Shown here: in pieces, positions 1 to 3,000 of the stretch
How positions within the stretch are numbered: the stretch's first letter is position 1
How the letters are laid out: each line of letters starts with the position of its first letter
Source of the DNA: a virus
Taxonomy: Duplodnaviria > Heunggongvirae > Uroviricota > Caudoviricetes
Reading direction: 5' to 3' (one strand)
Virus record (IMG/VR): IMGVR_UViG_2690316115_000013
Span: 1-5,976 of that record
Length of the DNA: 5,976 nt
Position numbers: made by a program

Positions 1-3000
1 CTCTCGTCTGGGGAATATCTCCCCGGCAGCCTTCAGGGAAAAATATCATCAGATAGCTGCTTAAAAAAAGAACAAATGGTAGTGTCCGCTATTGTCAGTA
101 CACCTCAGTTATCGAGGTCGCGACGGCGGGAATCTGGTGGTTCAGCAATAATTGTGATGCGAAGTCGTGATTTAGTGAAAATGTCTAATCTGAGTTGCCG
201 GATGATTTGCTGTACGTCTTTTCGGTATTTCTGGCCTTTATCGCTGATGTAGTACTGGCTTCCCCGTCTTCGCCAGTAGGTATTCACCGTCGGCGGCCAG
301 GGAAGCACAAACTCATATTCATTCATGACTTAATCTTCCCCTCCTTCAGCAATATCGCCTGCGTCCTGATCACGCCTTCCAGGTGGTAAAGTCTGGCGTC
401 GTTGTTGTCGAGAATTCGGGTGCGTCGGTCGATCTCCGCGTGGCAGTCACTACAAGCCCATGCACCGATCAGGTCGTCAGGCTTCATTCCCGTTCCGCAA
501 ATTCCAGCCATCCGGTAATGTGCCAGAACTGTCGTTTCAGGATTGCCATTGCATACGCCGTAAATCCGTACCTGGCATTCTCTGCCGCGCGCTTCTTTGC
601 GTAGGTTAGCCATTAAGCAGCCTCCCCTGTTACTTTCAGCATTCCGTTATCGAGCGGCTTTCTGGTCAGCCACTGTTGACCACGCCCGGTGATTTTTGTG
701 GTGAACGAGATCTGTATTCCGTGATTTGTATTGACCGCTGTTTCTTTCACTGTGAAATAGCCGCGATCCATATATTCCTGCATTGGCACATTGCGCCGGG
801 AACCTGAAGCAATAAGGATTTTGTGATCGCGCATCCACGCAAACAGTTTGTTTGGACCAATACCAACAACCTTTGCAAAGTTTCCAATCAAAATTCCGCT
901 GGACTCGCCAACGCGATCGGCAAACTCAACTTTAGGTGCTGCGAGAGCAAGCTGTTTCTCCAGTTCAGCCTTCTGGTCTTCAAGGTCGGCCGCAAGGCGC
1001 AATGCCTCAGAAAAGGTTTGTGGTATTTTCGCGGTTGCCCCTTCAAGCTCTCGCCAACGGTCAACAAGACGAGCGGTGAATTCCGGCGACAATTGGGCGA
1101 CGACAATAATGCTGTCTCGCTTACCTTGTTCGCCTTCGAAGACGTAAGCCTCGACACTACGGCGCAGTCCTAAGTTATTGATTTTTTCGAAAACCTGCAA
1201 TGCAGGAAGTTGAATAACTCCAGATTCAGCCAGGCGCTCTATTGATATTTTTACGTTATCTGGACGACTCCCCACCAACTCAGCGATTTCAATGCTGGTC
1301 ATTTTGATGATGCTGCTATTTATCAGCTCATTCATTGTCATGTCCTCTCATATTGAAAATTCAGCAATAAAAAACCCAGCCGAAGCTGGGTTTGTTAAGT
1401 TGTCAATTGTCAGTAGCGATGCAGTGAAGGCGGCAACTCTTTGTTCTTAAGCCTTTCCCATGCCAGAAGGTTCGTCGGCCCGTCAGGCTCATAAATATCT
1501 ATATCCCGCGTGTGATTAATTAAAACGCCCCTCGCCCTCCCGATGATATACGAGAACTCATAGCCGTAGTCGTGGCATATGCCGGAATAGCCAGACTGAA
1601 TCAGTTTTAATGCGGGATACAACTCACGGAACAATGCCTGTGAGCGGTTGGCATAATCCCACAGCCATACAAGGCTGTCTGTTTCTTTTGCGGAAAGCCC
1701 GTTGGGCTTCTTCTCTTGTTTGCCAGTATTTTTCTCGCACTGGCTGAAATAGCAGTCTTCCAGTTTTTCGAACACATCCCACGCCTGATCGGTTTCTAGC
1801 ATTTTGGCGTGACGGGCTGCGCCTCGTTCTGTCCAGAGGATGAGGGAGCGAACGTTACGGGCAATTTTCACAGAGTAGTTAAAAGCTACTCTGTGCTTGA
1901 ACTCACGTAAAGTTTCACCTTCAAGTTTGAAGAAGTGTTTTTCCTCAATGAAACGACCTTTGTTTTCGTGGTGATTCTGGCGAATACGAATAGCTTCTGT
2001 GCCGTAAAGGTGCGCCAAAAGTTCGGTAGTGATAACGGGGATCTGCTTGTAAGTAATCGTGGAGAGTGTTTCAACAGAGATTTGAGTTGTCATAATGACG
2101 CCCTCGAGTGGTTTCTTAATAACTCACCACCGACGACGCCAATCGTCTGGTGGTGAACTGTGCAGGGTTGGCGTAACCGGGAAACCGACCGGCGCGGATC
2201 TCTCCGCCCCCACACAGCCCACCATAATTCAGATGTGCGCGTGCATACGACAATAAAAAACACGCTCGCGGCGTGTATCTGTCGCGGTCTCTATCCAGGA
2301 CGCCAATCCCGACGCCAGATTTTGCTGGCGCGTGAGGAATATAGCCCCGAATAAATCATCACGTCAATCACCTTGTTTTCCTCGCACGATGTCTTAGCCA
2401 CCGGATATCCCACAGGTGAGCCGTGTAATTGAAGGCTTTAACGTCAGATTCTTTTGGGATTGGCCTGGGTTTATTTCTGGAACGTTTCGTTGGAAGGTAA
2501 TTGCAGTTTTCACAGACTATATCGGTAATGCTTCGTCGCTGTCGTCTCATTCATACCTCCTGTCGGTAAATCTGACACCCTGCTCCACAGCCCAGGAAGT
2601 TGTGTACTCAATCAGGCTTGCCATACGCTTCACGCTCATCTGCGCACTGCTTTCGCGGATATTGACGTATTCACCTTCAAGACCAGGCAAAACATCAGCT
2701 TCCTGTTTTGTCGCCACGGCATGACCGCTGATTAACAAAACTTTCCACTGTTCTGGTTTTAGCCATCTGCCGCACCACTGAACCTGTCGGGAGATATCAG
2801 CGACCATCGCGTGAAATTTGGCATTTTGATCGAGATTCCGCTTGTAATCGGTGATGCGGATCGTAACGGGTTTGTCTTTATCGAGAGTTGTTGCAAGGAT
2901 GGCGTTAATGGCGAATTGTTGCTGCTGCTTACTTCGGAGGAAGATAGTCTGGTTCATTATTCCCTCTCACTGGATTTTCCCAACAAAAAAGGAGCCGAAG

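Follow-up and report, generated by a model that had tools for sequence, protein, structure and literature searches.

The window, that is, the whole 5,976-nt stretch analysed here (positions 1 to 5,976 of the Caudoviricetes record IMGVR_UViG_2690316115_000013), carries two paralogous genes on the minus strand, each preceded by a structured leader. I call the two loci copy A and copy B, and their features are listed in Table 1. The copy B protein is 48% identical to the copy A protein in a pairwise comparison. The copy A protein bears the RefSeq name 'phage antirepressor Ant' and is 67% identical over 126 residues to AnrP of Gifsy-1. By homology, the regulated genes are probable anti-repressor genes.

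Table 1. Features of the two leader-gene cassettes in the window
Feature	Position	Strand	Remarks
Copy A promoter	2338..2367	-	-35 TTGACG (2362-2367), 18-nt spacer, -10 TATATT (2338-2343)
Copy A IsrK-like small RNA	2255..2331	-	RF01394, 75.5 bits
Copy A IsrK-like hairpin 1	2312-2331	-	
Copy A IsrK-like hairpin 2	2296-2311	-	a1 (UUGGCGU, 2300-2306) in loop and 3' arm
Copy A site b1 GAGACCG	2285-2291	-	Pairing includes one G.U
Copy A intrinsic terminator and U6	2255-2276	-	Terminator scan
Copy A C4 antisense RNA	2152..2223	-	RF01695 match; ends set by analogy with mature P1 c4
Copy A closing helix	2208-2224 with 2151-2167	-	Fold and covariation
Copy A second helix, GAGA loop	2194-2207	-	Fold and covariation
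Copy A third helix	2176-2193	-	Loop b' = UCGGUUUC at 2181-2188
Copy A junction segment a' = UACGCCAA	2168-2175	-	
Copy A alternative hairpin	2125..2155	-	a2 (UUGGCGU, 2136-2142) at apex
Copy A site b2 GAAACC	2110-2115	-	Complementary to b' loop
Copy A Shine-Dalgarno GAGGG	2101-2105	-	ATG at 2093
Copy A anti-repressor (by homology), ORF6N and P22_AR_C, 227 aa	1410..2093	-	Pfam ORF6N 1.2e-19, P22_AR_C 3.6e-24
Copy B promoter	3923..3952	-	-35 TTGACA (3947-3952), 18-nt spacer, -10 TATATT (3923-3928)
Copy B IsrK-like small RNA	3842..3916	-	RF01394, 74.3 bits
Copy B site a1 UUAGCAC	3885-3891	-	
Copy B site b1 UCGAAAC	3870-3876	-	
Copy B intrinsic terminator and U7	3842-3862	-	Terminator scan
Copy B C4 antisense RNA	3737..3809	-	RF01695 match; fold = Rfam structure
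Copy B second helix, GAAA loop	3780-3793	-	
Copy B third helix	3761-3779	-	Loop b' = AUGUUUCGA at 3766-3774
Copy B junction segment a' = AGUGCUAA	3753-3760	-	
Copy B target region	3678..3740	-	Alternative hairpin, a2, b2, Shine-Dalgarno
Copy B alternative hairpin	3708-3740	-	Bears a2 (UUAGCAC, 3720-3726)
Copy B site b2 UCGAAAC	3689-3695	-	
Copy B Shine-Dalgarno GAGG	3683-3686	-	ATG at 3677
Copy B ORF6N/P22_AR_C protein, 221 aa	3012..3677	-	Pfam matches

It was found that both leaders are C4 antisense RNAs, a known regulatory family of phages (phage P1) that acts on an anti-repressor gene through RNA-RNA pairing, together with the partner IsrK small RNA. In an Rfam covariance-model scan, C4 (RF01695, gathering cut-off 45 bits) was matched over its full length on the minus strand with 66.7 bits at 2146-2229 in copy A and with 75.1 bits at 3731-3815 in copy B. 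The curated cut-offs of isrK (RF01394, 50 bits) and c4-a1b1 (RF03163, 46.7 bits) are also exceeded in both copies, the latter with 50.5 bits at 2292-2344 and 47.4 bits at 3877-3929. Each copy is a complete cassette like immI of P1 and the isrK locus of Gifsy-1, in the order of a sigma-70 promoter, an IsrK-like RNA with sites a1 and b1, an intrinsic terminator, C4 with segments a' and b', sites a2 and b2, and the anti-repressor gene. Matches to rsmX, istR and a third isrK (1370-1475, 4712-4802, 5554-5641) score below the gathering cut-offs, lie on terminator-like hairpins, and were set aside as chance matches.

The original prediction had described a conserved structured leader with compensatory changes in both paralogues, and every feature was found in its place on the minus strand. 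The phenomenon is genuine, and it is already known. The G-rich block of the two leaders, GGGCTGTGTGGGGG, occurs exactly twice in the window, at 2207-2220 and 3793-3806 on the minus strand, against a chance expectation of 0.01 occurrences. It is present as predicted, but it does not stand alone: it forms the 5' strand of a 17-bp closing helix, with CCCUGCACAGUUCACCA as the 3' strand. The helix is 100% paired, with four covarying pairs, across 26 distinct homologous leaders. The hairpin with the GNRA loop also stays paired despite the change in stem and loop between GCGGA-GAGA-UCCGC in copy A and GAGCC-GAAA-GGCUC in copy B. Its helix is 100% paired across the same 26 leaders, and both sides have changed in four of its five pairs. 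In the closing helix and the GNRA hairpin together, 8-10 pairs are altered on both sides, and 97% of the cells pair, compared with 33-44% when the partners are slid as a control. The comparative alignment and the covariation analysis bear out the compensatory changes. GNRA loops are found in 122 of 492 C4 family members (PMC2864571).

The minimum-energy fold of each core is the Rfam C4 consensus structure: a long closing helix around two hairpins, a short one with a stable tetraloop and another whose loop is large, with support from covariation. The cores of 84-85 nt fold far better than shuffled sequences on the minus strand (z = -4.2 for copy A and -5.95 for copy B), and less markedly so on the plus strand (z = -1.96 and -3.56).

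The original prediction placed the element at 2094-2253. The element is there, but the conserved unit reaches about 100 nt further, upstream of the terminator. The copy A promoter has 10 of 12 matches in the promoter scan and the copy B promoter 11 of 12, and the -10 region is invariant among 27 homologs. The copy A promoter lies at the place of the annotated P1c4/P51b promoter of phage P1 and of PisrK of Gifsy-1 (PMC4825925). The isrK match covers two 5' hairpins and the Rho-independent terminator, and both terminators were matched independently by the terminator scan. The helices of the IsrK-like region are 89-100% paired in the homologs. Binding of isrK to Hfq and its accumulation as an RNA of ~77 nt are known only for Salmonella (PMC2330248, PMC4825925).

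What do the unpaired parts of C4 pair with? Since the b sites shift register between cassette types, a/b matching was assessed by a per-sequence search for the longest complement, with shuffled loops as controls. In copy B, a' is complementary to a2 over 7 nt (p = 0.006) and b' to b2 over 7 nt (p = 0.004). In copy A, the a'-a2 complement is 7 nt, while the b'-b2 complement is only 6 nt (p = 0.045). The b contacts of copy A are weak in general, since b1 also needs a G.U pair. I reduced 190 cassettes to 30 distinct configurations. Cognate a' and a1 match over 7 nt or more in all 30, and a' and a2 in 27, and the cognate b'-b2 match has a median of 7 nt, compared with medians of 4 nt for non-cognate combinations. 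In the homolog alignment A2, the a'-a2 columns are 95.6% paired with three covarying pairs, a slight understatement due to four cassettes whose longer UUAGGAAC site is out of register. The covariation of a2 and b2 with a' and b' is as tight as that of a1 and b1. The end of b2 lies 7-16 nt before the start codon in the homologs, or overlaps with it; the gap is 16 nt in copy A and 11 nt in copy B.

At least nine a' and seventeen b' sequences were found, and they reassort. The two cassettes of the window differ in a/b specificity, with cross matches between copies A and B of 3-5 nt. Since their a and b sequences differ, each C4 is expected to act chiefly on the gene of its own cassette. A few natural cassettes (L110, L200) carry a C4 that is mismatched to the downstream sites, and the pairing is thus not indispensable everywhere.

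Is the leader a sensor, as the original prediction suggested in naming a riboswitch, an RNA thermometer or a protein-binding site? A purely cis-acting sensor in the 5' UTR would fit a structured and conserved leader with stable tetraloops directly 5' of the gene, and alternative conformers do exist. Against a sensor, the conserved parts are helices, with no conserved unpaired core for a pocket; the unpaired segments are the most variable ones and change in step with two sites upstream and two downstream. These properties indicate an antisense RNA with RNA targets rather than a ligand pocket. The element also belongs to a family with established antisense function, and no riboswitch family was matched in the window in the Rfam scan (E <= 1). 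In the predicted minimum-energy fold of the copy A leader, the Shine-Dalgarno GAGGG is enclosed in a weak helix. A purely cis-acting sensor is hardly credible. What holds of the predicted cis-regulatory RNA is a functional structured RNA on the gene strand, and this RNA almost certainly controls the downstream ORF6N anti-repressor gene.

Each leader very probably represents the C4 portion of an anti-repressor cassette that is self-contained and under RNA control, homologous to immI of P1/P7 and to isrK-'orf45'-anrP of Gifsy-1. Most likely, C4 blocks translation of the anti-repressor gene by pairing with a2 and b2, and IsrK counteracts it. In this scheme, transcription would start from the sigma-70 promoter at ~2331 in copy A and ~3916 in copy B, and the intrinsic terminator would stop most transcripts, yielding an IsrK-like RNA of ~77 nt that displays a1 and b1. 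The read-through transcripts would bear C4, with its 17-bp closing helix around the GNRA-capped hairpin and a second hairpin, and with a' and b' unpaired. C4 would probably be excised by RNase P at UUAU|GG as in P1, a context conserved in the homologs and in P1. Its a' and b' segments would then pair with a2 and b2 in the leader of the anti-repressor mRNA, and the anti-repressor would not be made. Since b2 adjoins the Shine-Dalgarno sequence, this pairing may block ribosome binding. Since the same two sites are present on the IsrK-like RNA, it may compete for a' and b' and relieve the block. In an uncut read-through transcript, the same pairing might occur in cis and lead to a second conformer with the CACCACC/GGUGGUG hairpin.

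The putative RNase P processing and translational repression are carried over from experiments with P1, where processing occurs at GGW and b' occludes the ribosome-binding site (PMC5320573). Likewise, activation by IsrK in trans through a1-a' pairing and the processed RNA of about 80 nt are presumed by analogy with Gifsy-1. In Gifsy-1, IsrK supplied in trans lifted anrP translation >100-fold, the a1/a' mutants G28A/C162U and G31A/C159U acted as partners, and a processed RNA of ~80 nt was detected (PMC4825925). Mutations of a1 in cis raised basal expression (Table 1D in PMC4825925); this counts against a simple decoy model, which predicts the opposite. I infer that the scheme as a whole operates in the present prophage.

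The second hairpin of the original prediction also covaries, from CACCACC/GGUGGUG in copy A to CGCCACC/GGUGGCG in copy B. It is 100% paired in the 26 homologs with one covarying pair. The CACCACC arm also serves as the 3' end of the closing helix of C4. Since the arm is common to both, the closing helix and this hairpin cannot form at the same time. At the variable position there is three-way covariation with both of its possible partners, and an incompatible combination was never found in the homologs. For the full read-through transcript of copy A, the minimum-energy fold contains the alternative hairpin. The predicted energies of the two conformers are -107.9 and -104.6 kcal/mol for copy A and -109.4 and -108.3 kcal/mol for copy B. 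With two near-isoenergetic conformers, the element is switch-like, and to this extent the riboswitch-like idea survives; the trigger in the homologous Gifsy-1 locus, however, is another RNA, IsrK (PMC4825925).

Conservation of the alternative hairpin would also suit control at the level of transcription, in which C4 pairing or the choice between helix and hairpin sets termination before the anti-repressor gene, as with the CI RNA of P4. Biere, Citron and Schuster (1992) reportedly found that ant repression in P1 ends in premature Rho-dependent termination, which speaks for such control. According to Weinberg et al., the 3' half of the closing helix sometimes overlaps with a terminator-like hairpin, and the Gifsy-1 paper raised the P4 analogy for STnc1160 (PMC4825925). 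In the window, the sequence after the alternative hairpin is AGUUAUUAAG (copy A) or AGGUAAAAAU (copy B), neither of which has a U-run, and the terminator scan had no match there. It was thus rejected as an intrinsic terminator and stays as an alternative conformer. That b2 lies at the ribosome-binding site suggests that translation is what is primarily targeted, and in Gifsy-1 transcription rose 8-fold as against 139-fold for translation (PMC4825925). Control mainly by termination is thus very unlikely.

The Gifsy-1 authors gave another account of their locus, a structural switch with translation of a 45-codon ORF coupled to anrP instead of a C4-type repressor (PMC4825925). Applied literally here, the leader would be the mRNA of a small ORF from the AUG at 2225 (copy A) or 3811 (copy B), and the read-through transcript would be locked in an inactive form. 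IsrK would free the ribosome-binding site of the ORF, and translational coupling would switch on the anti-repressor gene. In Gifsy-1, an orf45-SPA fusion was detected, start-codon and early-stop mutations cut activation, and an AUGA overlap links orf45 to anrP (PMC4825925). The AUG is conserved and also forms part of the Rfam consensus (uuuuAuGG), and the two near-isoenergetic conformers predicted for both copies would also suit such a switch. In the window, however, the ORF from this AUG is 33 aa long in copy A, where it stops 30 nt before the anti-repressor start, and 31 aa long in copy B, where it stops 38 nt before. Thus, there is no overlap to couple through, and a frame of the orf45 type running into the anti-repressor start with an AUGA overlap was found in neither copy. 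Among the homologs, the ORF ranges from 14 aa to >45 aa or read-through, with frame shifts after the second and third helices. The same AUG is the RNase P site of P1 c4 (UUAU|GG), which explains its conservation. Moreover, the account has no role for a2 and b2 despite their covariation with a' and b'. I consider it unlikely for the present cassettes, though less so than control by termination, and prefer repression by C4 pairing.

A protein-coding explanation for the conservation was also rejected; ORF length and frame vary between cassettes, and no peptide is common to the homologous leaders, as the original prediction had supposed for the two copies. The mechanically called ORFs 2090-2263, 2116-2253 and 3727-3939 are not common to both copies.

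The c4-immI locus (c4-icd-ant1/2) of P1/P7 has the same order of parts: promoter, a1 and then b1 hairpins, C4, a2, b2 at the ribosome-binding site, and the anti-repressor gene. Its c4 RNA has the same three-helix fold; a' occupies the junction that follows the third helix, b' lies in the loop of that helix, and UUAU|GG recurs at the 5' processing site. In the P1 sequence too, inspection by eye shows a2 exposed on a hairpin that the 3' end of the closing helix helps to build. The specificities also resemble the heteroimmunity of P1 and P7, in which a few bases set specificity and the targets change to match. In contrast, the small gene icd lies between b2 and ant in P1, where ant is repressed via icd translation and polarity. 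No icd-like gene was found between b2 and the anti-repressor gene in the window, where there are only 16 nt in copy A and 11 nt in copy B. The icd gene is a mark of the P1 operon and not of the C4 RNA family. Here, b2 lies directly before the Shine-Dalgarno sequence of the anti-repressor gene itself, which encodes an ORF6N/P22_AR_C protein instead of Ant1/2. The window cassettes also have a strong intrinsic terminator between b1 and C4, while the scan found none in P1. By eye, the b1-c4 interval of P1 has a hairpin with a 12-nt loop followed by AUUUUUG, which fails the scan criteria. Unlike P1, the window cassettes lack a C1 operator, lie in the nin region of a lambdoid prophage, and are present twice.

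The isrK-orf45-anrP locus of Gifsy-1 (Hershko-Shalev et al. 2016, PMC4825925) is in essence this cassette again, with the same three Rfam matches, and its C4 match lies over 'orf45'. The published description makes no mention of c4 or RNase P (PMC4825925). Its a sequence is that of copy A (UUGGCGU / UACGCCAA), the first 11 residues of AnrP resemble those of the copy A protein, and the verified pairs G28-C162 and G31-C159 are a1-a' pairs. On the other hand, its b sequence is AUCACCG, as against GAAACC in copy A and UCGAAAC in copy B. Its conserved-AUG frame has 45 codons and overlaps with the anrP start, while the window frames stop 30-38 nt earlier. The Gifsy-1 cassette is located downstream of Q, and the window cassettes upstream of Q in the nin region.

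Two further systems are more distant. The immI region of P22 (sar/ant) also represses a phage anti-repressor at the RNA level, and the window proteins carry the C-terminal domain of the P22 anti-repressor. The sar RNA is a transcript of the opposite strand across the ant ribosome-binding site, a true cis-antisense RNA. In contrast, the C4 sequence is located upstream, on the same strand, and its targets are short and split. Like C4, the P4 CI RNA (with seqA/seqC) is a small immunity RNA cut from a longer transcript that pairs with sites upstream and downstream; it terminates transcription of replication genes, whereas C4 would block the anti-repressor ribosome-binding site. The Gifsy-1 authors cited CI as a structural analogue (PMC4825925).

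Taken alone, one more copy of a curated RNA family is an isolated finding of little weight. The C4 family is present in 2524 of 5426 complete E. coli genomes, about half, with up to six cassettes per genome, and in 276 phage records, mostly Stx-converting phages. Annotation of C4 and IsrK-like RNAs is absent from the RefSeq record and from most of the phage records listed, and supplying it is the practical value of the result. The isrK locus of Gifsy-1 and c4 of P1 belong to one kind of module, and a2 and b2, which have no place in the Gifsy-1 model, are constrained by covariation like a1 and b1.

A wider reading in two parts can be put forward tentatively, as a possibility that is less likely than not. 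Lambdoid prophages of enterobacteria, Stx phages among them, may have a combinatorial RNA 'address code' for the control of anti-repressors, and 'orf45'/STnc1160 of Gifsy-1 may be C4, with IsrK as its natural anti-antisense partner. If so, two systems that still have entries of their own in a 2025 review would become one. Cassettes of co-resident prophages could repress each other's anti-repressors by matching C4 and unlock them by matching IsrK, and the two mostly orthogonal cassettes of the window would be two independent channels. The many reassorting RNA specificities in Stx-type prophages could influence which co-resident prophages induce together.

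The conserved leader ahead of each ORF6N anti-repressor gene is a real functional RNA that is already known. The original prediction of a cis-regulatory RNA started from three features, and all of them were found in both leaders: a G-rich block (GGGCTGTGTGGGGG, occurring exactly twice, at 2207-2220 and 3793-3806, versus 0.01 expected), downstream of it on the minus strand a GNRA hairpin (GCGGA-GAGA-UCCGC or GAGCC-GAAA-GGCUC, depending on the copy), and further downstream on the same strand a second hairpin (CACCACC/GGUGGUG and CGCCACC/GGUGGCG). The two cassettes, copy A (leader 2094-2253) and copy B (leader 3678-3841), are 80% identical across ~380 nt, and the similarity reaches ~100 nt upstream of the terminator, outside the leaders. 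In an Rfam scan, each copy matched three curated families on the minus strand, all above the gathering scores: c4-a1b1 (RF03163, 46.7 bits), isrK (RF01394, 50 bits), and C4 antisense RNA (RF01695, 45 bits). Within C4, the G-rich block forms the 5′ strand of a 17-bp closing helix and the GNRA hairpin forms the second helix, in which 122 of 492 family members have a GNRA loop (Weinberg et al., PMC2864571 supplement). The minimum-energy fold of both cores matches the Rfam structure (z = -4.2 for A and -5.95 for B). The isrK family, which has no clan, and the c4-a1b1 family of clan CL00128 match the identical two hairpins (2255-2344 and 3842-3929); they appear to be one element under two names.

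Both copies share the layout of parts of phage P1, whose record annotates the promoter P1c4, a1, b1, the 77-nt c4 RNA, a2, b2, icd, and ant. Here, a′ and b′ are unpaired segments of C4, while a1/b1 and a2/b2 are the matching sites upstream in the IsrK-like RNA and downstream, respectively. In P1, the junction 3′ of the third helix contains a′ (CUGUCAA) and the loop of that helix contains b′ (UCACUAAC); b2 covers the icd ribosome-binding site, and the mature c4 starts at the G directly after UUAU in UUAUGG. Unlike P1, the window cassettes lack an icd-like gene. A copy B promoter with 11/12 consensus matches and a terminator were independently recovered by a pattern scan. Copy A has weak b contacts (6 nt, with a G.U pair in b1). 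In one homologous cassette (L035), C4 lies ~300 nt from the ORF6N gene (element ~330 nt upstream) and the spacer seems to carry a putative small ORF, whose start codon overlaps with b2 (TCACCATG). This layout is nearer to the P1 c4-icd-ant region than the window cassettes are.

Features of the two cassettes and their neighbors in the window
Feature	Position	Strand	Detail
Copy A promoter	2338-2367	minus	10/12 consensus matches, pattern scan
Copy A c4-a1b1	2292-2344	minus	50.5 bits
Copy A isrK	2255-2331	minus	75.5 bits
Copy A a1		minus	UUGGCGU, loop of IsrK hairpin 2
Copy A b1		minus	GAGACCG, pairing includes G.U
Copy A terminator	2255-2276	minus	also found by pattern scan
Copy A C4 family match	2146-2229	minus	66.7 bits
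Copy A C4	2152-2223	minus	b′ UCGGUUUC, a′ UACGCCAA
Copy A a2	2136-2142	minus	UUGGCGU
Copy A b2	2110-2115	minus	GAAACC
Copy A Shine-Dalgarno	2101-2105	minus	
Copy A ATG	2093	minus	
Copy B c4-a1b1	3877-3929	minus	47.4 bits
Copy B isrK	3842-3916	minus	74.3 bits
Copy B C4 family match	3731-3815	minus	75.1 bits
Copy B a1 = a2		minus	UUAGCAC; a′ AGUGCUAA
Copy B b1 = b2		minus	UCGAAAC; b′ AUGUUUCGA
KilAC/ANT gene	613-1341	minus	242 aa, directly 3′ of copy A gene
RelE/ParE-like toxin gene	4020-4390	plus	looks frameshifted
HTH antitoxin gene	4383-4700	plus	intact
Doc/Fic-family toxin gene	4751-5245	minus	
74-aa ORF	5255-5479	minus	presumably Phd-type antitoxin
hok/sok locus	5644-5968	minus	complete, type I
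Hok/Gef ORF	5644-5856	minus	70 aa, RefSeq name hokD
sok (RF01794)	5794-5968	minus	116.9 bits

Homologous cassettes were gathered from IMG/VR in two ways, via the ORF6N protein and via a 25-mer conserved in the IsrK hairpins. The Rfam-type structure is 97% paired across the 26 distinct leaders compared, versus 33-44% with slid partners, and both sides have changed in ten pairs. Pairing reaches 100% in the closing helix and the GNRA hairpin and 95.6% in the a′-a2 helix, where three pairs covary. The compensatory changes first noticed between the two copies are borne out by this alignment. A specificity set of 190 cassettes (75 unique sequences, 74 of them parsed) gave 30 distinct configurations, in which a′ matches a1 over at least 7 nt in 30/30 and a2 in 27/30. 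The cognate b′-b2 match has a median of 7 nt versus non-cognate medians of 4 nt, and b2 ends 7-16 nt ahead of the start codon or overlaps with it. Nine a′ and seventeen b′ sequences reassort among the cassettes. Such three-way covariation is the hallmark of an antisense RNA that has RNA targets on both sides, two upstream and two downstream. Since copies A and B cross-match by only 3-5 nt, the two cassettes should be largely orthogonal.

The second hairpin uses the 3′ end of the C4 closing helix as its 5′ arm, so the two structures compete. Pairing of this hairpin is 100% among the homologs; its single variable position covaries with each of the two possible partners, and the 74 cassettes contained no incompatible combination there. 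For the leader alone, the C4 fold is predicted to be favored. When the read-through transcript is folded as a whole, the optimum is predicted to have a1/b1 paired with a′/b′ and the second hairpin formed with a2 at its apex, the C4-fold conformer being just 1-3 kcal/mol less stable. These two conformers are the counterparts of 'structure A' and 'structure B' in a study on the isrK-orf45-anrP locus of the Salmonella prophage Gifsy-1 (PMC4825925).

The identical three Rfam families were matched in that Gifsy-1 locus, and the C4 model (34131-34214, minus strand, 69 bits) lies exactly over 'orf45'/STnc1160. The Gifsy-1 a sequence is that of copy A, AnrP is 67% identical to the copy A protein across 126 aa with the same N-terminal start, and the contacts G28-C162 and G31-C159, verified by experiment, join a1 to a′. 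In Gifsy-1, IsrK in trans raised anrP translation >100-fold, and STnc1160 was seen as a processed RNA of ~80 nt (PMC4825925), a species that fits C4 RNA. The paper mentions neither c4 nor RNase P. A 2025 review enters IsrK and c4 separately, and a study of the aphid phage APSE remarked on their co-occurrence in APSE genomes.

Is the leader a coding sequence? From the conserved AUG, an ORF of 33 aa opens in copy A and one of 31 aa in copy B, compared with 45 aa in Gifsy-1. Its length in the other cassettes varies from 14 aa up to read-through, and the frame shifts 3′ of the helices. As originally noted, the leader is without a conserved coding frame. In the window, this ORF stops 30-38 nt short of the anti-repressor start, so that translational coupling of the Gifsy-1 type cannot operate alike here. 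The AUG coincides with the RNase P cleavage site of P1 c4, and this overlap is enough to account for its conservation.

While the membership, fold, covariation, and geometry of the cassettes are observed, their C4 processing, repression, and activation by IsrK are carried over from the homologs. Most likely, transcription from the promoter would yield chiefly the IsrK-like RNA that ends at the terminator, with C4 and the anti-repressor mRNA coming from read-through. C4 would pair with a2 and b2 and block the ribosome-binding site, as in P1, and IsrK would titrate C4 with a1 and b1 to lift the block, in line with the Gifsy-1 result. The rise in basal expression caused by cis mutations in a1 in Gifsy-1 (PMC4825925) is not predicted by a simple decoy model.

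Positions 108-5976 of the window match a lambdoid prophage on the chromosome of E. coli ML35 at 100% identity, and the RefSeq record annotates no RNA genes. The listed phage genes, all on the minus strand, are in order hokD/sok, the Doc toxin gene, the ORF6N gene, ninB, ninE, 'antirepressor Ant', the KilAC anti-repressor, ybcO-like, rusA, ninH, and Q, with a RelE/ParE-like toxin-antitoxin pair on the plus strand between the Doc and ORF6N genes. Three toxin-antitoxin loci thus adjoin the cassettes: hok/sok, the RelE-like pair, and Doc with its putative antitoxin, a 74-aa ORF ahead of the Doc/Fic gene that had no match in a Pfam search. As read from the sequence, the usual N-terminus of the RelE/ParE-like toxin (MRIFKNAWFERFARK) starts at ATG 4020 and runs to a stop at 4274, while the RefSeq CDS (4052-4390) is in a different frame and starts with 'ICTQNK'; the slip could plausibly have occurred in an A-rich run at ~4062-4071. 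The KilAC/ANT gene, the third anti-repressor-type gene, lacks its own C4 or IsrK element, and a terminator-like hairpin (~1370-1395) separates it from the copy A gene.

Of 5426 complete E. coli genomes, 2524 carry the isrK-C4 module, each at 1-6 places (42 places are on plasmids); 276 phage records, most of them for Stx phages, have it as well. Among the matches listed, the underlying features were none, hypothetical protein, ash family protein, or Icd-like protein. Five IMG/VR contigs have mosaic cassettes whose C4 does not match their own downstream sites: L110 mismatches at a2 and b2, L200 mismatches at b2, and L165, L085, and L090 have other downstream sequences and no ORF6N gene. The recombination breakpoints seem to lie directly 3′ of C4, and such cassettes may be de-repressed or rewired. 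The remaining interest lies in uniting the IsrK system with the C4 system and in a reassorting specificity code, which may control cross-talk among co-resident prophages.
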